Shown here: in pieces, positions 3,444 through 29,447 of the stretch | Layout of the letters: every line of letters begins with the position of its first letter | Position numbering within the stretch: position 1 is the stretch's first letter | NCBI RefSeq assembly: GCF_006345805.1 | Contig: NW_021832195.1 | Span: forward strand, 1 to 31,507 | Reading direction: 5' to 3' | DNA from: Octopus sinensis | Lineage: Eukaryota | DNA length: 31,507 nucleotides | Notes under the pieces: model-generated | What the model was told of the DNA's origin: nothing | The model's input: the letters and a program-made list of their open reading frames with translations, nothing else | Database searches by the model: none | Program-made: the position numbers and the translations under genes

Positions 3444-4330
3444 TTTTTTTTATCTAGTTTCAGCTCACAAGCTGTGGCCATGCTGGGGCCCGCCATTTGG
3501 TGTTGCTACATGATTTATTTCACGAATGCTTTTTTACAATGCCATTTGGTGCATGAGATAGTTCGATGCAGCTGCCCTCATCTGCACCTCCTGCCGTGAA
3601 GTTGGTTCATCTGGGATACCTGTTTCATTTAAAGACATCTGCATCCACCCCATGCAGGTCTCTTAGGTTCTTCGGGAGGATATTGAAAGCTGTGGGCCTC
3701 GGAAGCCCAGGCTATCACAGTATCTTGTCCTACATCTTGATGGCAAATTTTAAGTCCTTGGCACTATGCAGTGGCGCCCAGTTCTGGCATTTGTGTAACT
3801 CTCGATACCAAAGTTTGGGACACGTCCTTGTAGGATCTTCCAGATGTATATTATGGCAAATCTTTCTCGCCTACGCGCTAAGGAATAGAGTCTCAATCTC
3901 TTGAGTCTTTCCCAATAGCTTATATGCTCCATAGAGGCTATCTTCTTCGTGTAGCTTCGTTGGATTGTCTCAATTCTGAGATTAATTTGACACTGGTTGG
4001 TGACCATAGCTGAGAGCAATAGTCAAAGTGGCTTAGGACAAGCGTCCTCCAGAGGACCATCATGGTTTCCTGGTCTCTTGTTCTAAAGGTTCTAAGAATC
4101 CATCGGGTCAGCCGCCTACATTTCATTGCCAATTTAGCAACATGTACATGAAAGGTTGCATCATCACTCATGTAAATACCCAGGTCTCGCACAGATTGTG
4201 CCTCTGGGATTGCAATTCCTCCAGGTCCAGTGTATTTATTGGGTATTCCATTTAGTTTTGCATGCTGATAGCATAAGGCTTGAAACTTTTCAGCATTGAA
4301 CTGCATGCTATTCTTTTCAGCCCACTTGTA
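3444..4330 (-). mobile_element. 5'-truncated CR1-group LINE (3' end of RT ORF plus 3' UTR), frameshifted
   Basis: Minus-strand frames give WAEKNSMQFNAEKFQ, VRDLGIYMSDD, LVLSHFDYCSQLWSP, ETIQRSYTKKI...YWERLKRLRLYSLARRRER, typical of the CR1/L2-group RT C-terminus. A-rich tail at ~3444-3450. Confidence 0.88.
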
Positions 4331-4349
4331 TATATATATATATATAATT

Positions 4350-4754
4350 TCAACAATTGAGGGTAAAATTAATTAATTAATCAATTTCACCAAGTGTTCA
4401 GTATGCAAAGGGACCATTTAAGGTGAATTCAAATTATTACATTATATAAAAGGGCTTAGTAAAATACTTTCAGTGTTTTCAAATCCAAACCAGGGAGTTC
4501 TGAGCTGATGATAGAAGTGTCGTGTTGACTAATCTTGAAACGTACGTTCTCAAATAACCTTTGCACTTGATTTTTAATGTCTCTACCCCATATTTGCGTG
4601 AGTTGAATTGAGCAAACACTATATGAGAGAGTTTTCTTTAAGTATTAGAAATAGTTTTAAAAAAGTTTTTTTAGCTGCTATTTCTAATGAGTTCAGTATG
4701 CGGCAAAGTAATTTATTTTACTAAGCCCTTTTATATAATGTAATAATTTGAATT
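4350..4754. mobile_element. Fold-back non-autonomous element (probable pLTR derivative), same family as 23349-24640
   Basis: Perfect 41-bp inverted repeat at 4426-4466 and 4714-4754. 4360-4425 is homologous to the reverse complement of 24552-24635. Internal hammerhead at 4501-4552. Confidence 0.8.
4501..4552 (+). ncRNA. Minimal type-I hammerhead ribozyme motif
   Basis: TGAG-CTGATGA-T-AGA..GTC GTGTT GAC..TCT-T-GAAACGTACGTT-CTCA: canonical core, stem I TGAG/CTCA, palindrome AACGTACGTT. Confidence 0.75.
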
Positions 4755-6999: not shown

Positions 7000-7319
7000 A
7001 TACATATATATACATACACAAGTGAGTGGACAAACGAAAAAAAGGGCACTCGTCATATTTATTGGGAGTTACATGTATGGATCAAAATAGTTTGATTCAA
7101 ATTCGTTGGTACTCATGAGTTTCAAGCATGATGGTAGTCTTCAGCCATTCTGAATTTGAATGAAAGAAGTTGATTATTAACGTACAATGGGCTGCGACTA
7201 GCGGAGGAATGTCACGTGGTGTCGTGGCTTGATGTTGGTGTAACCGTATATCAGGCTTTTCATTGACAATCATGACTTTGAGACTCAGTCTCAACTCATG
7301 GCTCACCACTTCATCCTAC

Positions 7320-8625
7320 GTGGATATCCCCTCAGCGCTATCCACACAGCCCAGTCGTTGCCCGTCCGTCGTTGCCTCTCACCTACCACACCTCCACCCT
7401 GACCCTCCAACCGACCTTTCCGGCGACTCCATCCGACCCCTCCACCTCGCACATCTTCTCCAACTTATTCCTTCCCTCTTTGAAACGAGCCCACAACCTG
7501 CGTGACTTCCTGGTCCACAGTTTCTTCCCTAACCCCACCACCCAGCTTGCTTCGTGTCCCTGCTCCCGCTCACACTGCCATACTTGCCCCTACCTCTCCA
7601 ACACCACCATCCTCACCTGCACCCATCATTGTCCTTATCATATCACCGATTCCTTTATCTGCACATCTAACAACGTCATTTACTGCATCTCCTGCTCTTT
7701 CTGCTCTTCTCATCGGTTAAACGGGACGCCGCTTGGATAGCCGGTTCGTGGAGCACCCTCGAGACATCAGACTCAGCAATGACATCCTCGTCTCCGGTTA
7801 TTCACTACAACACCTATCTGTGTTGAGATTTGTCTTTACACAGGGTCCATCTGGACTCCCACCTTCGCCGTGAACAGGTATTTTTTATCTTGTCCACGAT
7901 CTTTTGCTTCACATGGGCTCAACTCCCTTGCTCTCTTCTCTTCATCGGACACCTACTTCCTCTCTTCACTCCTACCACCAACTCTATTTATACCACCCCA
8001 CCCTACCCCCATGCATCCACCCCACACCCACATCTTCATCCATCTCACATCACCAAACCCCAACCACACACCACCCCACATCGCCCCACACTCCATACCC
8101 TACCCACACACCACAGTCCATATCACCACACCACCACATCACACCACCCCACACCACTCAACACATACACTAGCGCTGACCACTTTCCAGCACCCATTCC
8201 ACCATCATCCGCACAACCACACAAATCATCTACACACTCACACGTTACAGACGCATACACTTACACACGCATACCTCCACACACGTCAAAGATACTAGCC
8301 TCCATCCACACACACACGCACTTAAAAATTCTCACATACACACACGCACACGCACCTTCGTTTTGGGATGACCAAAACTTTATTATCTTTCCTTCTTTCA
8401 ACCTCTTCTGTCAAACCTTTTTCTAATATGTCACCAAGCTTGACCGCTAAATCCACAAGTTTTTTTTTTATTCTCTCTATTTATTTTCCCTTATTCCTTT
8501 CTGCTGAAGAGCGTAGGCTCGAAACGTAAAAGACTTTCTCACTTTCCCGAGTGTCAAATTAATACACTTGCTTGCTGTTCACACGCTTGTCTTTGTCTTT
8601 TGTTTATATATAAATTTCAACTGTG
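7320..8625 (+). mobile_element. 5'-truncated Penelope-like element 3' end: Cys-linker, GIY-YIG endonuclease remnant, CAC-rich UTR, pLTR
   Basis: KRAHNLRDFLVHS, CSRSHCHTC Cys linker (Neptune-like), FICTSNNVIYCISCSFC, then shifted frame IG*TGRRLDSRFVEHPRDI and ..SHGLN. Followed by a hammerhead-like motif at 8497-8532. Confidence 0.88.
8497..8532 (+). ncRNA. Hammerhead-like motif, core CUGCUGA
   Basis: CTTT-CTGCTGA-A-GAGC GTAG GCTC-GAAACGTA-AAAG, downstream of the PLE endonuclease. Confidence 0.6.
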
Positions 8626-8748
8626 TGTGTGTGTATTATTCCTAGACAAGAATATTGTTCAGTTCTATGTTTTAAGAGATGAGGAATTATGTACATTATT
8701 TACATTATTTACATTTGACGGATATTTGTCCTCATCTTGTTTGTTGTT

Positions 8749-8794
8749 AACACAACATTTCAGCTGATATACCCTCCAGCCTTCATCAGGTGTC
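8749..8794 (-). ncRNA. Minimal hammerhead motif (CpG-decayed copy)
   Basis: GACAC-CTGATGA-A-GGCTG..CAGCT-GAAATGTT-GTGTT. The sister copy at 9234-9278 (+) has a broken core (CTGGAGA...GAAT). Confidence 0.7.
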
Positions 8795-8930
8795 TGGGGG
8801 AAATTTCAAATCTGGGTTTCTCATTCCTAAGGTAACCACTACGCCATATGCCCGTGGGCATATGGCGTAGTGGTTATGAGCACGAGGTACTAACCCCAAG
8901 ATTCCGAGTTCGATTCCAGGCGGAGACCTG

Positions 8931-8942
8931 AATAATAATACT

Positions 8943-8990
<48 letters not shown>

Positions 8991-9003
8991 GATGATGATG
9001 ATG

Positions 9004-9093
<90 letters not shown>

Positions 9094-9122
9094 TTAATAT
9101 AATAATAATAATATTAATAATA

Positions 9123-9160
<38 letters not shown>

Positions 9161-9185
9161 TAATAATAATAATAACAACAACAAC
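8931..9185. repeat. (AAT)n/(GAT)n/(AAC)n microsatellite inside the element
   Basis: Directly visible. Confidence 0.95.
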
Positions 9186-9379
9186 ATCGAAAATACCTTA
9201 GGAATGCGAACCCAGGTTCGAAATCTCCCCCAAGACACCTGGAGAAGCCTGGAGGGTATATCAGCAGAATGCTGTGTTAACAACAAACAAGATGAGGACA
9301 AATATCCGTCAATTGTAAATAATGTAAATAATGTACATAAGAATATTGTTGACAGTGACTTTTGGCCAGCAAAGCCATT

Positions 9380-12071: not shown

Positions 12072-12129
<58 letters not shown>

Positions 12130-12134
12130 TAGTC

Positions 12135-12617
12135 ACGTATATTTGCCATTTGAATATGGCTAACCCCTAAGAGTGGATGCTACTGTAGTTTGTAGCCCCA
12201 GGAAGACACCTCCTCCAGCTGGCTATAGACACTTTCTGTGCCCTGTCAGTATTTGTGAAAAGAAGTCATCCTTCCCGTCTTCAACTTATGATACACACGG
12301 ACTCGAGTTTCAAGGTATTGACCTATCATCGGCGTGTGACAATCATAGTTGTCGACGAGAATTCAGTTTCCCTCACAAATACATATACTTTTTCCAGTAT
12401 CGATTGACACTGATATTGAAAAAGTGAAATCAAACAATGATACTCGAGTCCGTGTGTATCATAAGTTGAAGACGGGAAGGATGACTTCCCTTCACAAATA
12501 CTGATAGGGCACAGAAAGTGTGTCTATAGCCAGCTGGATGAGGTATCTTCCTGGGGCTACAAACTACAGTAGCATCCACCCTTAGGGGTTAGCCATATTC
12601 AAATGGCAAATATACGT
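12135..12617. mobile_element. Long fold-back element (~178-bp arms), probable inverted pLTR pair
   Basis: 12135-12312 is a near-perfect reverse complement of 12438-12617. A hammerhead overlaps the inner edge of the left arm. Confidence 0.88.
12294..12338 (-). ncRNA. Minimal type-I hammerhead motif, GUC cleavage triplet
   Basis: CACACG-CCGATGA-T-AGGT CAAT ACCT-T-GAAACTCGAGTC-CGTGTG: 6-bp stem I, palindrome ACTCGAGT, U4C core change. Confidence 0.75.
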
Positions 12618-13539
12618 CACGATGTGTTGCCGCTACTGTTTATAACTCGCTCTGAGATTTATCATTATATATATATATCAGTTACGATGGTCGTCAAGAT
12701 CAACAGATCTCCCAGGATGAGGCTCGTCTTTTTGACTGTGGTGTTCGGCTCAGAATTTCTGGAACTACCTTTGGCACCAGCCTATGTGAGAGTTTCTTTC
12801 GTGTTTTCTACCACAGTATAGTTTGTTCTAACAGGACATCCACGATTAAGAGGAGATCAAATATTACCTTTCGATATGTGTCTGTGTATGTGTGTCCGCG
12901 CGCATGTGCACGCGTATAGTCGTGCATCTATGTATAACATTTCTATGATAAAGAAGCATATAATGAATATGCCTGTATACTATTTAGAACAACAGTATTT
13001 AATCTGTTTTTTTTTTCTTTTTTTTAAAGACAGTACGGTGTAATTGAGGATAATCTGGCTCCTATTTCAAGCAGAATATTTGTAGATATTTAAGATAGCG
13101 CAATTTTGTGAATATGTATCATATACTGTTGGCAGAGAAAACATTGTATAAGTCTGCCAATTGACTATGAATAGACACAATAAATGTGAATAAAAGAAAA
13201 ATATAATGTAAAAGACTAAATGAACTCCTGAACTGCACTTTGAGATTGTAAATTAAAACGGCTTTGCAATATATTAGGCTGGAATCATTTCTGTTATATT
13301 TACTAAACAAAACTGCCTTTCTTTTAAATTGAGATTATTAAAAACTTTGATGAGAGATCTTGTACATATGTTTATTCAGTAACATTTCCGGTGCAGAAAA
13401 TTGGTTTCCTGGCATCTGAGATGAATGTTGTTTTTTCTCTCTCTTTTTACACACTTTATATTCTGACGAGGGAACTTACCGTTTCAAACGAGTGCAAGTT
13501 TTTTTCACTTTTTTTTTAACTCAACAACCTATTACTTTT

Positions 13540-16636: not shown

Positions 16637-16811
16637 GTAAACATTACAAATATCTTAATTAACATATGTGTGTCGTTTAAACGCCAGAGGCTGCGGTTTT
16701 TCTCTGGGAAGATCCCTTTAAAGGTGTAGTGTTAAAAAAGAGTCGTGTTAAAAAAACACGGCGAAATGAAACCGCATGTATTAGAAGTTAGACATTTTGG
16801 TATACGTAATT

Positions 16812-17195
16812 GGGGAGGCGCAATGGCCCAGTGGTTAGGGCAGCGGACTCGCGGTCGTAGGATCGCGGTTTCGATTCCCAGACCGGGCGTTGTGAGTGTT
16901 TATTGAGCGAAAACACCTAAAGCTCCACGAGGCTCCGGCAGGGGATGGTGGTGATCACTGCTGTACTCTTTCACCACAACTTTCTCTCACTCTTACTTCC
17001 TGTTTCTGTTGTACCTGTATTTCAAAGGGCCGGCCTTGTCACTCTCTGTGTCACGCTGAATATCCCCGAGAACTACGTTAAGGGTACACGTGTCTGTGGA
17101 GTGCTCAGCCACTTACACGTTAATTTCACGAGCAGGCTGTTCCGTTGATCGGATCAACCGGAACCCTCATCGTCGTAACCGACGGAGTGCTTCCT
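16812..17195 (+). mobile_element. tRNA-derived SINE, family A, second copy
   Basis: Near-identical to 537-921; 11-bp TSD with 1 mismatch, TATACGTAATT/TATACGTTATT. Confidence 0.92.
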
Positions 17196-18669: not shown

Positions 18670-20967
18670 CGGTCGAAGCACGAAATCTAAAGAAAGGACA
18701 AGCGTTGAGACTAAAACATATCTTAATGACGAACCTGAAGTACAAAGTATATATACACCTTGCCACTAAAGAAAGGGAAAAGTGAGAGGCCCTCGCTAAA
18801 GTGGAGAACTTAATGAAACAATTAAAAGAACTACTCCGTCGTGAATGTAACTCCGTATGGAACCAGGTGCGTACAACACTTTGAAGAGAAACTAACATGG
18901 ACGTTACAACTACCATACAACCACCCAACAACTAAACAGTTTGACATGACTGAATCGATTGATGGGGTCTCTATGAATGACAAACCCGTAGATGATGACC
19001 AACTAACAAGAAACGTAGAGTGTACGGAGGAGTACAACTGGACACAGATGAACTCGCTGCCTTAGAACTCCCCCCAAAGTTCGCCACATATAATAAGGTT
19101 AGCAAGATATCAATACTATCAGACATTGAGAAATGCTTCACCAAACTTAGATGGAGAACACACTTTAACTGCAACCAAAATCCTGACATTCATGACATAT
19201 CTGACAATAACCATTCCATACGTTGTTTCTATGATAAACGTGACATATCATTTGACATGAAAAGGGTCTGCCCTACCAACTTACCCTTCAACAAAAGAGT
19301 ATGCATGCCACCCTATGCTGACGCTGCTTTAGAAGCAAAGTTTATCCTTACTAAGTCCAAACTCCTGTCAGCTTTCTCTGATTACACCCAAAGGCATAAA
19401 CAAAAACGAACAAAAAATAAGACCCATGATCTTGACACCAAAATTAATAAAGGCTTTAACAAATTAAAAAACCGTATAAAAAATAGATTGTATGCTTCCC
19501 AACTGACAAATCAGGTAGAATGTCTGTTGACAACCTATCTAATTATATTTCGAACATGCAACCACACATCAGAGACATGAGACAAACAACAACTCTCGAG
19601 TACATTGAAAACGAAAAAGTCCTTAATGCTCAGATGGAGATGTAGAGTATCATTCTCCAGTCTGAGAAACGCACAGCGAACACTTTCATGACCCCCAACA
19701 ATGAAATCCCACCCCTATATGGCCTTCGAAAAGATCATAAGAGCCACATGCATCATATACTTGGGCCATCTACCCGACCTGTTTGTGGTGCCAACAATGC
19801 TAACAACCACAAAATAGCATATTTTTTCTCACAATTCCTACGACCCTTAATAGAGTTATCTGCGGATGTATGTGATAGTACTGAAGACCTCCTTAGCAGG
19901 ATCCGCGAATGCAACAACACATGTGACCCCAGTGACCATATCGTAGGTAGCATGGATGTGGTATCCCTATATCCTTCCATTGATGTAGACTTTGCTGTCG
20001 AAAAATGTATAAAGATGATTAGTGAGAGTAATATGATATTTAAAAATGTGGACGTATATGAACTAGGGCTCTTCCTGGCCCTTAATAGTACCGATGAGTA
20101 TCTGTCACACAACAATCTTCTTCATGCTTGTCCCACCCGTAACAAACAAAGTAGACCACCTACCATTACCCCAGCATACAAAAAGACCCACTGTGAACGC
20201 TGGCAGGGCTGGATGAAGCCAGACTACCCACCTTCAGATGCACACGACATCAGAACTACCATCGCACATGCTATCGGTGTCAGCCTTAGAACTACACTTA
20301 AAACTCATATTTTTAAGTTCAACAACAAATTGTATAAACAGACGAAAGGCGGTGCTATTGGAGTAGGGATCACCGGTGATGTTGCAAACCTCTTCATGGT
20401 ATGGTGAGACAGACAGTTTGAACACTGCCTAGCGACCCATAACATCCACTTAGCTATGTACTCTCGATACGTTGACGACATTAACCTTGTCGTGAAATGT
20501 AATAATAATACAGACACAGAGATTGACTCTCTACTAAATGAAGAACAGGTGGTGACAGCTATACTACACATAGCTGACTCTATTCATAGCAGTATAAAAG
20601 TTACCGTGGACTACCCCTCTAAACACCCCAGTAATAGATTACCTGTCCTAGATACTGAGCTGTGGATGGAAAATACTATGATTAACGGAACTGTTAAACC
20701 CTGTATACTCCATTCACACTATTGTAAACCTATGGCTAATCCACTGGTAATCCGTAATGACTCAGCGATGTCGAGTACTACCAAGCTCAACATCCTGGTG
20801 GCAGACTTTGTTAGAGTAATGAGGAATGTATTTCCACTATGCCAACCACAAGAACGACAACAACACATCCAGCACTTCATATTCCGAATGCAACGCTCCG
20901 GATACACACAATATGACAGAATCAGAGTGTAGAAAGTGCGAAAACAAGATTCGAAAACTTAGCCGAG
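18670..20967 (+). pseudogene. Penelope-like retroelement reverse transcriptase ORF, disrupted and 3'-truncated
   Basis: LELPPKFA, PTDKSG, LYGLRKDHK..RPVCGA, GSMDVVSLYPSI (motif A), YKQTKGGAIG (motif B), YSRYVDDI (motif C), LPVLD, HYCKPM, QRSGY. Frameshift at ~19486, in-frame TAG 19643 and TGA 20405, frameshift at ~20930. The 5' boundary is uncertain. Confidence 0.92.
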
Positions 20968-23348: not shown

Positions 23349-24640
23349 AAACATTACTTTATATAATTAACTGTTTTGAGCAAGCATGTAATGACTTTGG
23401 CTTAGCTATCAGCCTTAAGAAGACCAACATCATGGGTCAGGCTACATCGGACATCCCAATCATACATATTGGAGACCACAGATTACAAGAGGTGGAGAAG
23501 TTTACCTATCTTGGCTCTACCGTCACCTACAACCTATCCGTTGACGCTGAGCTCAATATACGCATTGGCAAGGCAGCTGCTGCGATGGCCCAACTCTCCA
23601 AACGGGCTGGGACAACAATAAGCTGACCAAGACCACGAAAATGAAGATCTACCAGGCATGTGTACTTAGCACTCTACTGTATGGAAGTGAGACTTGGACG
23701 CTATACACACGCCAAGAGCGTCGCCTAAACATCTTTCACCTGCGCTGCCTCCGGAAAATCCTCCGCATCAAATGGCAGAATCATATCCCTAACAAAGATG
23801 TCCTCAGGCAAGCAGGAATACCAAGCATGTTTGCACTCTTCACACAAAGACGTATGAGATGGCTTGGGCATGTTAGCCGTATGAAAGATGGCAGAACCCC
23901 CAAGGACATACTCTACGGAGAGCTTGCAAGGGGTACTAGGTCTGTGGGTAGACCGTTCTTACGATACAAGGATATTTGCAAAAGGGACATGAAGGCCTGC
24001 AACATCAATATTAGCAACTGGGAAGCAGTTGCCAGCAACCGTGGAGATTGGCGACGTACCGTAAATGAGGGAATACAAAGGAGTGACAGAGAGAGAGAGG
24101 AGAAATGGAAAGACAAGAAAAGACGTCAACAAGAAACTATGGCACTACAACCAGCCAGGAACAGTCTTCGCTACATTTGCGGCACCTGCCAGAGGGAGTG
24201 TTTGTCCAGGATAGGACTACACAGCCACAGCAGGATATGTATTAGGACAGGAAATGTAAAAGCCGGACTAGATTATTTTATGCGCAACTCCATTGTCTCC
24301 CGAGACAAAAAGGATGCCAACAACTTTATATAATTAAGGTTCAGCAAAAAAAAATTTGCTTTACCACATACCGAAATTTTAGAAATAGCAGCCAAAAGAT
24401 TTAGCTATTTCTTCTACTATAAGAATAATCTCCCAGACAAATTCTTACAGTAGAAGAAATAGCTAAATTTTTTGGCTGCTATTTTTAAAACTTCGGTATG
24501 TGGTAAAGCAAATTGTTTTTTGCTGAACCCTAATTATATAAAGTTATGTTTAAATTTACCGTAAATGGTCCTTTTACATACTGAACACCTACTTGGTAAA
24601 ATTGTTAATTACTAATTAATTAATTAATTTTGCCCTTTAT
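23349..24640. mobile_element. Hairpin fold-back element interrupted by the RTE insertion
   Basis: Arms are (23349-23370 plus 24338-24426) and 24441-24551, with a 14-nt loop. The extension 24552-24635 matches the reverse complement of 4360-4425. Confidence 0.85.
23371..24322 (+). mobile_element. 5'-truncated RTE-clade LINE
   Basis: FGLAISLKKT, VEKFTYLGS, RIGKAAAAM, YQACVLSTLLYGSETW, RMRWLGHVSRM, C-terminal CGTC..C..RIGLHSH. One frameshift at ~23605. Perfect 15-bp TSD ACTTTATATAATTAA at 23356-23370 and 24323-24337. Confidence 0.95.
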
Positions 24641-26829: not shown

Positions 26830-27485
26830 TGTTTATATACTCCTCCTCCCCTCCTCTCCTCTTCCCCCCTCTCCCCCCCTCTTCTCCCCTCCCCTTCTCC
26901 CCCTCTTCTCCCCCTCCCCCTCTTCTCCTCACTACACCACACGACTTAACACATCACATCATATATGATGTGCCATACTAATACATACACCAACTAATAC
27001 ATACTAATACGTACTAATACATACTAATACATACACCAACCCTATACATACACACGTCCAGACCCCTCATACGCACTTATACTCTCTCATACACACACAC
27101 ACTTATACATACTAATACGTACTAATACATACTAATACATACACCAACCCCATACATACGCCTGTCCAGACCTATCCTAGGGTCATTCAACCCTATTATC
27201 AACCCTATTATCTCCCCTTATTTCGCTCTCGCGTCTCATGTTTGATCTTTGACCTCTGGCCGAAATCAGATCGCCATGTTGATTCGTTAGTTACTGCACG
27301 CATTTTTTTTCTCTCCTTCTTTCTGTGTTTTTTTTCTCTCTGTGTATCTTTCTGTTGAAGAGCGTAGGCTCGAAACGTTAAAGACTTGTTTTATTTATAT
27401 TCCCAGAGCGCCATACTAATACAATTGTTTGTTTGTTTTCCACCTGCCTTCGTCTTTTGTCTATTTTCATAAAGCTTCCCGTTAT
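26830..27485 (+). mobile_element. Non-autonomous Penelope-derived element, second copy
   Basis: Homologous to 6037-6570. CT-rich and CATACTAATA-rich body with a ~108-bp-period internal duplication (27001-27172). Confidence 0.8.
27347..27384 (+). ncRNA. Hammerhead-like motif, core CUGUUGA
   Basis: TCTTT-CTGTTGA-A-GAGC GTAG GCTC-GAAACGTT-AAAGA. Confidence 0.6.
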
Positions 27486-28032: not shown

Positions 28033-28431
28033 GAGTGACAGTTGTGTTCCACAATTGACAAACGTAGCGAAATTGTTAGATTTGTCCTGCAAGTATCTTC
28101 CGATGGGCTCCAGCAGGCTGACTCTAACGAAATGTCTTTTGACTTAGATGTTACGATCTGATGAATGGGCCACTTTAGTTAGCATTTATCCTGCTTTTTT
28201 TCAACAAGATATTTTAGTCAGCTGGTGTGCGGCCTGGACATTATAGTTTCGTGGGCACATCAACGATTCATAACTTTGACCGCATCTAAAGGAATAATTG
28301 TTTGGCTATTTTTGACTATTTTCATTGAATTCTATTGTTACATTTATGAATCTGTGTTGCAAAATTCCTGATGTGAAACTGTATACATTATTTACATTTG
28401 ACAGATATTTGTCCTCAACTTCTTTGTTGTT

Positions 28432-28477
28432 AACACAACGTTTCGGCTGATATACCCTCCAGCCTTCATCAGGTGTC
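28432..28477 (-). ncRNA. Intact minimal type-I hammerhead ribozyme motif
   Basis: GACAC-CTGATGA-A-GGCTG GAGGGTATAT CAGCC-GAAACGTT-GTGTT, palindrome AACGTT. Confidence 0.82.
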
Positions 28478-28564
28478 ATGGGAAAATTTCGAACTTGGGT
28501 CCTCATTCCTAAGTTATTTTTCGATGTTGTTGTTGTTGTTATTATTATCATTATTATTATTATT

Positions 28565-28946
28565 GAGTGAGAGAGCAGTGCATGCCATCAAAGTGACACT
28601 GGGATAAAATATACAAAGCCCAGTATACCCATCATGACTACCCGTCTGATAAGGGTACACCAGGTACATGCATCACAAACATATGTGCGCGACATGGTAA
28701 TCTCATATCAAGATAAACAACGCATGACCTTGCAGGTCCTTGAATAAAGATTGTTTAAGGATGTTGAACGAAACACCCATGTTTCCAAAGAATTTCATTC
28801 AACACACGCCTATGATGCTTCCCCACTACTTCTGCTCGTGATCAGAGATGCACGTAACGCCAGCCACTAAGGGACATGCTCAACTGGTTAAGGTTAAACA
28901 ACTGACAAGCAAATCTGTGGTATTGAGTAGAATATTTGCTGTAGCC

Positions 28947-28947
<1 letters not shown>
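28565..28947. mobile_element. Unclassified ~380-bp insertion nested in the (ATT)n body
   Basis: Complex sequence flanked on both sides by (ATT)n and absent from the equivalent arms at 8931-9190 and 29085-29200. Confidence 0.65.
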
Positions 28948-28986
<39 letters not shown>

Positions 28987-29098
28987 GAGGTACTGCCTGG
29001 GATCGAACTCGGAATCTTGGGGTTCGTAGCCCTCGTTCTTAACTACTACGCCATATGTCCACGGACTCATGGCAGGGACCTGAACAATAATAATAATG

Positions 29099-29162
<64 letters not shown>

Positions 29163-29245
29163 CAATAATAAAAAATAACAACAACAACAACAACAACAAC
29201 GAAAAATACGTTAGGAATGAGAACCCAGGTTCGAAATTTCCCCAA

Positions 29246-29291
29246 GACACCTGATGAAGGCTTGAGGGTATATCAGCCGAAACGTTGTGTT
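29246..29291 (+). ncRNA. Minimal type-I hammerhead ribozyme motif
   Basis: GACAC-CTGATGA-A-GGCT..AGCC-GAAACGTT-GTGTT. Confidence 0.8.
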
Positions 29292-29447
29292 AACAACAAA
29301 CAAGATGAGGACAAATATCTGTCAAATGTAAATAATGTAAATAATGTACACAATTCCTCATCTCTTAAATATAGAGCTCTAAAACTATGTGTTGAAACAG
29401 ATATTGTTGTATTTCGGGATGGTCATTCTTTTTTTTTTTTGCCAAAT

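Follow-up and report, generated by a model that had tools for sequence, protein, structure and literature searches.

A candidate Penelope/Poseidon-type element of Octopus sinensis with a tRNA-Arg-derived segment in its terminal repeat and a large population of SINE-like solo copies

Introduction

Penelope-like elements (PLEs) of the Penelope/Poseidon type, such as PAc of Anolis, have one open reading frame (ORF) for reverse transcriptase (RT) and endonuclease (EN), and a pseudo-long terminal repeat (pLTR) that overlaps the ORF start and places a hammerhead ribozyme in the first codons (PMC11167929). Penelope insertions are typically recognized by a truncated partner in inverted orientation and by a tail of 30-40 bp on one of their ends, and their heavy 5' truncation is also known (PMC8557442). 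The origin of the tail lies in a pair of internal sites, about 111-118 nt into the ORF, at which RT starts, and cleavage by the hammerhead is protein-assisted and dispensable in vitro (PMC11167929). The hammerheads of PLEs are of the minimal type I, the defining features of which are used here (PMC4209133). We analyzed a 31,507-nt stretch of Octopus sinensis (contig NW_021832195.1 of assembly GCF_006345805.1, positions 1 to 31,507; hereafter the window) that contains a repeat unit made up of a tRNA-like head, an (AAT)n tract and a module of about 180 nt with a minimal hammerhead. We report that this unit is the entire pLTR of an autonomous element of the same genome.

The octopus element resembles PAc in its single ORF for RT and a putative EN, in the overlap of pLTR and ORF start with a hammerhead in the first codons, in two apparent internal RT starts that leave a 30-40-bp tail on one arm beside an inverted truncated partner, and in its AT-rich targets (PMC11167929). 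Unlike PAc-type PLEs, its pLTR includes an (AAT)n tract and a tRNA-derived segment that has both an A and a B box. Most copies begin at this segment, and the body has no shared TTTT. The schistosome Sm-alpha and Sj-alpha repeats, which are likewise short and retroposed, also combine an RNA polymerase III (Pol III)-type promoter with a hammerhead downstream of it; these are tandem, have canonical hammerheads and, in the excerpts of the review, no named coding partner (PMC6765202), whereas the octopus unit occurs in inverted pairs and is the pLTR of an identified coding element. Cassandra, Helenus and Ajax (TRIMp3) likewise have a small-RNA-derived Pol III promoter inside a retrotransposon terminal repeat, but these are non-autonomous long terminal repeat elements of 0.3-1.3 kb, the coding partners of which are argued to depend on Pol II (PMC10886601); the octopus carrier is a 2.7-kb coding Penelope-type element. 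Short elements that share the 3' end of the PLE by which they are moved include the non-autonomous MRC1 of Chlamys, for which the excerpts report neither a tRNA head nor a canonical hammerhead (PMC8557442). Octopus short interspersed element (SINE) and Penelope families are listed only by class in the excerpts of PMC13282606.

With tRNA-derived SINEs the unit shares a tRNA-Arg-like head, short length, high copy number and variable target duplications. Ohshima and Okada reportedly described in 1994 the octopus tRNA-Arg SINE families OR1 and OR2, which may include this head. Our literature search, outside of which lay subscription papers, Repbase, Dfam and SINEBase, found no tRNA head in a pLTR, no Penelope-driven SINE and no coding retrotransposon with a Pol III promoter.

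The autonomous element

A degenerate RT-motif pattern gave 122 matches in the genome. The module and/or the head was present at 25 of the 30 loci fetched, and at 14 the head directly followed the ORF end; extra matches taken as controls comprised three that were not PLEs and two from the same Penelope family. In the 2.7-kb element the ORF stop is followed, after 30 nt, by the head, then by the (AAT)n tract and finally by the module, which is in frame with the 2.3-kb ORF. Two loci display its layout: L201 reads module-ORF-head-(AAT)n-module, and L202 reads head-(AAT)n-module-ORF-head, starting at the head without upstream element sequence. The ORF-head order was seen in 16 of 20 longer stretches, 14 of which were re-fetches chosen for their earlier result; the 6 picked blind had the head in 3, a mid-ORF jump to the module in 2 and neither in 1. 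The module-to-ORF junction has 188 matches in the genome and the ORF-side head junction 48 exact ones.

The peptide encoded at 29217-29375 of the window aligns with the N-terminal end of P0005, a relative of 847 aa that is intact (21/43, E 2e-6), and the module frame runs on into the ORF with 42% identity over 214 aa. The ORF matches RVT_1 (E 3e-8) and has 382 homologues, the best at 53-66%. Its C-terminal translations read VYSIPCSCG.LYKGET...EEHRK, and the absence, by eye, of the CxxC (Zn-finger) linker of Neptune/Nematis places the element as a putative EN+ member of Penelope/Poseidon, an assignment made on motifs. Pfam GIY-YIG gave no match in the scanned fragment or in P0005 and P0001 and is precomputed on 3 of 120 homologues. 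Neither module nor head was found at 30 GIY-YIG loci of other families (0/30), nor the module in 13 longer stretches of such families (0/13); this search returned mainly families that we take, from their motifs, to be Neptune/Nematis-like. A first Poseidon-motif pattern had yielded a single chance match.

The original prediction, made from the sequence alone, had rightly placed the hammerhead-bearing 3' part, or tail, of the unit in a Penelope-type pLTR, the autonomous partner of which is now found in the same genome. It had also read the unit as a SINE-like element that parasitizes Penelope machinery; in this view, an independent SINE with a tRNA head fused to a borrowed pLTR would depend on a Penelope element without such a head. 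Short copies do far outnumber ORF-bearing ones, the structure resembles the head-body-tail plan of a SINE, and a solo copy has moved with 175 nt of its flank (L153, see below). The autonomous element itself, however, has head, (AAT)n tract and tail in this order, with the tail forming the beginning of its ORF. In every 3'-complete ORF copy examined the head lies about 30 nt after the stop codon, and among these copies head-less 3' ends were found only as internal jumps. The head is homologous to a tRNA and has A and B boxes, as in tRNA-derived SINEs; unlike in these, it is also present in the autonomous partner, which is a PLE, and the 3' part is a Penelope ORF start instead of the 3' untranslated region (UTR) of a long interspersed element (LINE). 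Parasitism by an independent SINE is therefore largely refuted for the present family, and we consider it improbable; a history in which a SINE came first and was then captured into the element is possible.

We are thus confident that the family consists of a Penelope/Poseidon-type element, the pLTR of which holds a tRNA-Arg-derived segment, and of many SINE-like solo copies. These short copies are pLTRs of this element standing alone and behave like SINEs, with a sharp start at the head and one apparent case of movement with flanking sequence.

A 1,333-nt contig from another organism (run X2, record 14) spans the 5' half of the ORF in one piece and is a possible lead to a better-preserved copy.

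The tRNA-derived head

The heads align gap-free to the tRNA-Arg(ACG) gene of the genome itself, which was the best match of all 5 heads compared with 24 distinct tRNA sequences of 10 isoacceptor types. The scores of 51.5-59 lay above all 200 shuffles made per head (maxima 36-44.5); before this gene joined the comparison set, no isoacceptor type stood out. The resemblance to tRNA-Arg(ACG) that had been predicted therefore stands, although the copy at 29060 is the only one to have the ACG loop, CTACTAA being the reading in 6 other heads. The A and B boxes and their spacing are intact in the majority of heads. Rfam and ARAGORN called neither the head nor the hammerhead, and low-threshold ARAGORN matches in related elements were disregarded as noise.

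A strict A/B-box pattern had no matches in the relatives, but it was insensitive, recovering just 3 of 16 known heads, and a tRNA profile was therefore used for them instead. This profile matched 9 of 16 3' regions of the own family versus 0 of 41 post-ORF regions of related elements from metagenome contigs, which makes the head special to this family among those tested.

Elsewhere in the genome, about 88 listed tandem units matching tRNA-Arg(ACG) occur at G000:C2:3121908-3157893 with a period of about 206 bp.

Insertions in the window and in the genome

The window holds two full heads and, as predicted, four arms of the ~180-nt module (8834-8661 and 28523-28384 on the minus strand, 9190-9340 and 29199-29378 on the plus strand), which are 90-94% alike. 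Their parts are as follows.

8648..8659, plus strand: left target-site duplication of 12 bp, AAGAATATTGTT, an exact repeat found only at 8648 and 9339
8661..8834, minus strand: long arm of the first insertion, pLTR/ORF-start module, positions 9-180
8661-8690: Penelope tail of ~35 bp on this long arm
8789-8754, minus strand: hammerhead core of the long arm, with two substitutions
8833..8853, minus strand: remainder of the long-arm head, of which only the initial 21 nt are left, forming the central palindrome with the plus-strand head
8856..8930, plus strand: head derived from tRNA-Arg(ACG), with the A box at 8863-8873 and the B box at 8908-8917
8931..9186, plus strand: (AAT)n/(GAT)n/(AAC)n tract from head to ORF start, (AAT)n proper at 8931-9175
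9187..9338, plus strand: short arm of the first insertion, module about 2-150, without tail and with a degenerate hammerhead core
9339..9350, plus strand: right target-site duplication, an exact repeat of the copy at 8648
28384..28523, minus strand: short arm of the second insertion, with an intact minimal hammerhead at 28477-28432 (features as in PMC4209133) and a predicted cut after GAAACGUU
28566..28947, minus strand: separate repeat M, inserted in the (AAT)n tract of the short arm
28985..29063, minus strand: head of this short arm, the copy with the ACG loop
29068..29198, plus strand: on the long arm of the second insertion, final ~15 nt of the head followed by the (AAT)n/(AAC)n tract
29199..29378, plus strand: long arm of the second insertion, of which 29217-29378 are the first 54 codons of the Penelope-type ORF
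29251-29286, plus strand: hammerhead core inside the ORF start of this long arm

The predicted unit at 8660-9338 is present, with its boxes and (AAT)n spacer in place, but it is a single insertion of two head-to-head arms within a 12-bp target duplication. Its order is a minus-strand module with 21 nt of head, a full head, the (AAT)n tract and a plus-strand module. The second insertion, at 28384-29378, is interrupted within its tract by another repeat.

Across the genome, the module follows the head in 25 of 29 head-picked loci, in line with the head-tail linkage that had been proposed. The head precedes the module in 17 of 29 module-picked and 16 of 30 hammerhead-picked loci, absent heads being mostly truncations or insertions into the (AAT)n tract. 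A LINE that is presumably R4/Dong-like lies between head and module in three of the four such loci fetched (L152-L154), L155 being without a head. As this LINE directly precedes the module in several loci, the module could be the 3' end of an (AAT)n-associated LINE; and as two arms face each other, they could be the terminal repeats of a DNA transposon. With the head on the far side of the LINE in L152-L154, however, the LINE must have inserted into the tract, and the module is not its 3' end, which agrees with the original prediction. Moreover, the arms are unequal, the length of the duplications varies from 10 to 17 bp, and the reading frame of a Penelope-type ORF runs through the module. 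We give either version next to no weight.

Two module 3' ends are preferred, at position about 140-155 or 175-185, and facing arms comprise one long and one short arm in 58 of 64 pairs (58 of 65 before a duplicate locus was removed). Long arms are over-represented in the module-picked set; the hammerhead-picked sets, taken alone, have this pairing in 26 of 29 cases (p 1.5e-5 against 50%). Duplications of 10-17 bp flank about 16 of 60 loci, as judged by eye and without a control. The pLTR-ORF-pLTR layout (L201, L202), the inverted truncated partner and the 30-40-bp tail at one end were thus all found, and the insertions carry the signatures of the Penelope link that had been proposed. Near-identical sequence occurs in sequencing runs of seven organisms, among which the run search recorded no RNA data set. 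Most copies are single or inverted-pair insertions and the module is an ORF start, unlike the direct tandem repeats or LTRs without coding partner sequence of a retrozyme or a tandem hammerhead satellite.

At L153 the same 175-nt, purine-rich, non-element flank without TTTT is present on both arms (4390-4680 and 860-680), followed on one side by a further partial module. This reads as a 3' transduction from a solo copy, and the shared flank suggests that a solo copy has acted as a template at least once.

The (AAT)n tract of the pLTR is a parasite-on-parasite hotspot. It is a repeated target of the presumably R4/Dong-like LINE (L152, L153, L154, also L030, L104, L116 and L124) and of the non-coding repeat M of ~460 bp, which shows variable 5' truncation (28566-28947 in the window) and is found with differing truncations in L002, L003, L021, L039, L058 and L108.

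The hammerhead motif

On inspection, the sequence at 28477-28432 has every feature of a minimal type-I hammerhead, namely the core, an extra base between 9 and 10.1, G10.1-C11.1, palindromic 15.2-16.2 and a helix I of 4-5 bp (PMC4209133); its helix II measures 5-6 bp. The predicted hammerhead is complete here, while the core is degenerate in the arm at 9190-9340 and has two substitutions in the minus-strand arm of the first insertion. The 39-nt motif has 1,081 exact matches in the genome (2.72 Gb) versus 0 for the reversed control and is therefore not a product of chance. Since an exact match is seen in just 1 of 39 head-picked arms and the columns of the motif are ~92% conserved, the arms in the genome can be put, roughly, at tens of thousands.

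Patterns with other spacer lengths led in 27 of 30 loci to deleted copies of the same Penelope family; 3 further matches were unrelated T-rich motifs. Near-identical motifs are present in the related elements L277 and L327. Single-strand folding of 28523-28384 was unremarkable (z -0.42), as expected of a minimal hammerhead. The ribozyme would probably cut only as a dimer or with the help of protein, and is probably not needed for insertion.

Start of the copies and probable transcription by Pol III

Among 54 alignments that cover the head in hammerhead-picked loci, 29 start at -14 to +5 of the head, 16 inside it and 9 more than 30 nt upstream, with none at -30 to -15. When the first 100 of 774 intact heads were assessed by eye, about 76 stopped within ~12 nt of the 5' end of the head, suggesting that most copies stem from RNA beginning there. 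Judged from this sequence pattern, the RNA of the short copies was probably made by Pol III, beginning at the tRNA-derived head. We accordingly favor a reading in which the head-(AAT)n-hammerhead unit is the pLTR and the RT of the element copies an RNA that starts at the head, probably a Pol III transcript.

TFIIIC and Pol III would start this RNA a few nt before the head. The protein of the element would then bind the hairpin at the ORF start and prime reverse transcription at two internal sites (about module 140-152 and 175-185), one per nicked strand; the two resulting cDNAs, only one of which has the tail, would meet head-to-head, and the hairpin TGCCC-AC-GGGCA at the 5' end may help them to join. 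The SINE-like short form would result when priming takes place in the first module of an RNA of full length or when a solo copy supplies the RNA. The AC/GT centre of the junction, set against arm length, did not decide between self-priming and twin priming.

The pile-up of starts could have a different origin, in that the head may be a passive relic of an old tRNA-SINE within the 3' UTR of a Penelope element that Pol II transcribes, the short copies being plain 5' truncations caused by RT stalling or fold-back at the hairpin. The native hairpin TGCCC-AC-GGGCA lies precisely at the 5' boundary of the head, fold-back junctions are common, Penelope insertions are heavily 5'-truncated (PMC8557442), and Pol III is deemed too weakly processive for coding retroelements (PMC10886601). 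A stem of 5 bp with a 2-nt loop is, however, a weak stop for a loss of ~76% within 12 nt. The head also fills almost all non-coding space from the ORF stop to the next ATG, L202 starts at the head with upstream element sequence absent, both boxes and their spacing are intact in the majority, and the body is without a shared TTTT. We regard a passive fragment as unlikely, though not negligible.

The last of these points was quantified in 14 natural bodies, which contain 9 TTTT runs, none common to two copies, against a summed expectation of 52 by base shuffle and 27 by dinucleotide shuffle. As the copies are one family, this count is one observation; ancestral runs number 0 versus about 5 (base) or 2-3 (dinucleotide) expected, with Poisson values of 0.007 and 0.07. 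Codon-preserving shuffles of three separate open fragments gave 3.7-4.4 expected versus 1 private run, a borderline depletion (p 0.04-0.05) that leaves room for the passive fragment. Among the controls, other elements of the same genome had 53 runs versus 35-49 expected and 77 relatives 505 versus 348; none of the 52 relatives with at least 3 expected, and 1 of 29 long control ORFs, was without a run. The missing shared TTTT, where about 4-5 would be expected, is a hint, suggestive only (p about 0.01-0.1), that Pol III reads the whole coding element. It is conceivable, although we have considerable doubts, that a tRNA-Arg gene captured into the terminal repeat of the element serves Pol III as the promoter for transcribing it end to end. 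The 2.3-kb ORF would have been purged of TTTT, the uncapped RNA would be translated, possibly after hammerhead processing, and the promoter would let solo repeats spread as a SINE.

Several observations weigh against the proposal that the element copies a Pol III transcript starting at the head. About 23 of the 100 intact heads run on into native upstream sequence, and 1 jumps from the ORF; the 5' pile-up could reflect RT fold-back at the hairpin within a longer Pol II RNA. Upstream modules joined to the ORF have a full head in 1 of 12 cases and a partial one in 1 of 12, so that any head is rarer there (2/12) than among hammerhead-picked copies (16/30). The tRNA comparison covers only 10 isoacceptor types, and the TTTT depletion is not significant per copy with dinucleotide shuffles. 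The hammerhead core is intact in just 14 of 39 arms and conserved no better than its flanks, and the AC-or-GT strand at the junction does not sort cleanly with long and short arms (12 vs 7). No fetched copy has an intact ORF, the longest frame being 319 aa, and the family may therefore be dead. Two RNA runs of a related organism were strand-symmetric, with depth tracking copy number and no pile of read ends at the head or the cut site; they neither support nor refute Pol III transcription or cleavage.

With tens of thousands of natural insertions, the family is a record of the two sites of RT initiation that a single lizard element showed in vitro. It ties the schistosome-type combination of Pol III promoter and hammerhead to a concrete coding source, and repeat annotators would split it into a SINE and a Penelope. 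It also allows a direct test of whether a 2.7-kb coding retroelement can be driven by Pol III. Such transcription would be very unusual and would open a direct path from a Penelope element to a new SINE. If Pol III use is confined to the short copies, this is still a clear case of a SINE-like family that arose within a pLTR.

Other repeats

The remnant of a different PLE endonuclease with its own T-rich pLTR, presumably Neptune-like, lies at 7282-7950 and 8498-8607, and also at 27348-27464 (plus strand) and 6195-6057 (minus strand). It contains another minimal hammerhead (CTGAAGA...GAAACGT), lies 50 bp to the left of 8660-9338 and is unrelated to the module. A broken PLE-type RT frame of yet another family, with no Pfam match, is found at 18970-20932 (plus strand). 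Outside the window, L156, L157 and L158 represent other PLE families with open frames of 775-781 aa that are TTTT-rich (about 4 per kb), and in one of them the pattern used here detected no hammerhead.

The 3' remnants of two LINE-type RT frames, which we take to be CR1/L2-like and RTE-like, occupy 3750-4372 (minus strand) and 23350-24333 (plus strand). Long palindromes or inverted repeat pairs resembling miniature inverted-repeat transposable elements lie at 12129-12623, 24322-24545 and 11174-11571/15005-15430. Another tRNA-like SINE, also bearing an A and a B box, occurs at 535-917 and 16810-17193 in two copies that are 95% identical, and a third, more diverged tRNA-like repeat lies at about 2670-2900.
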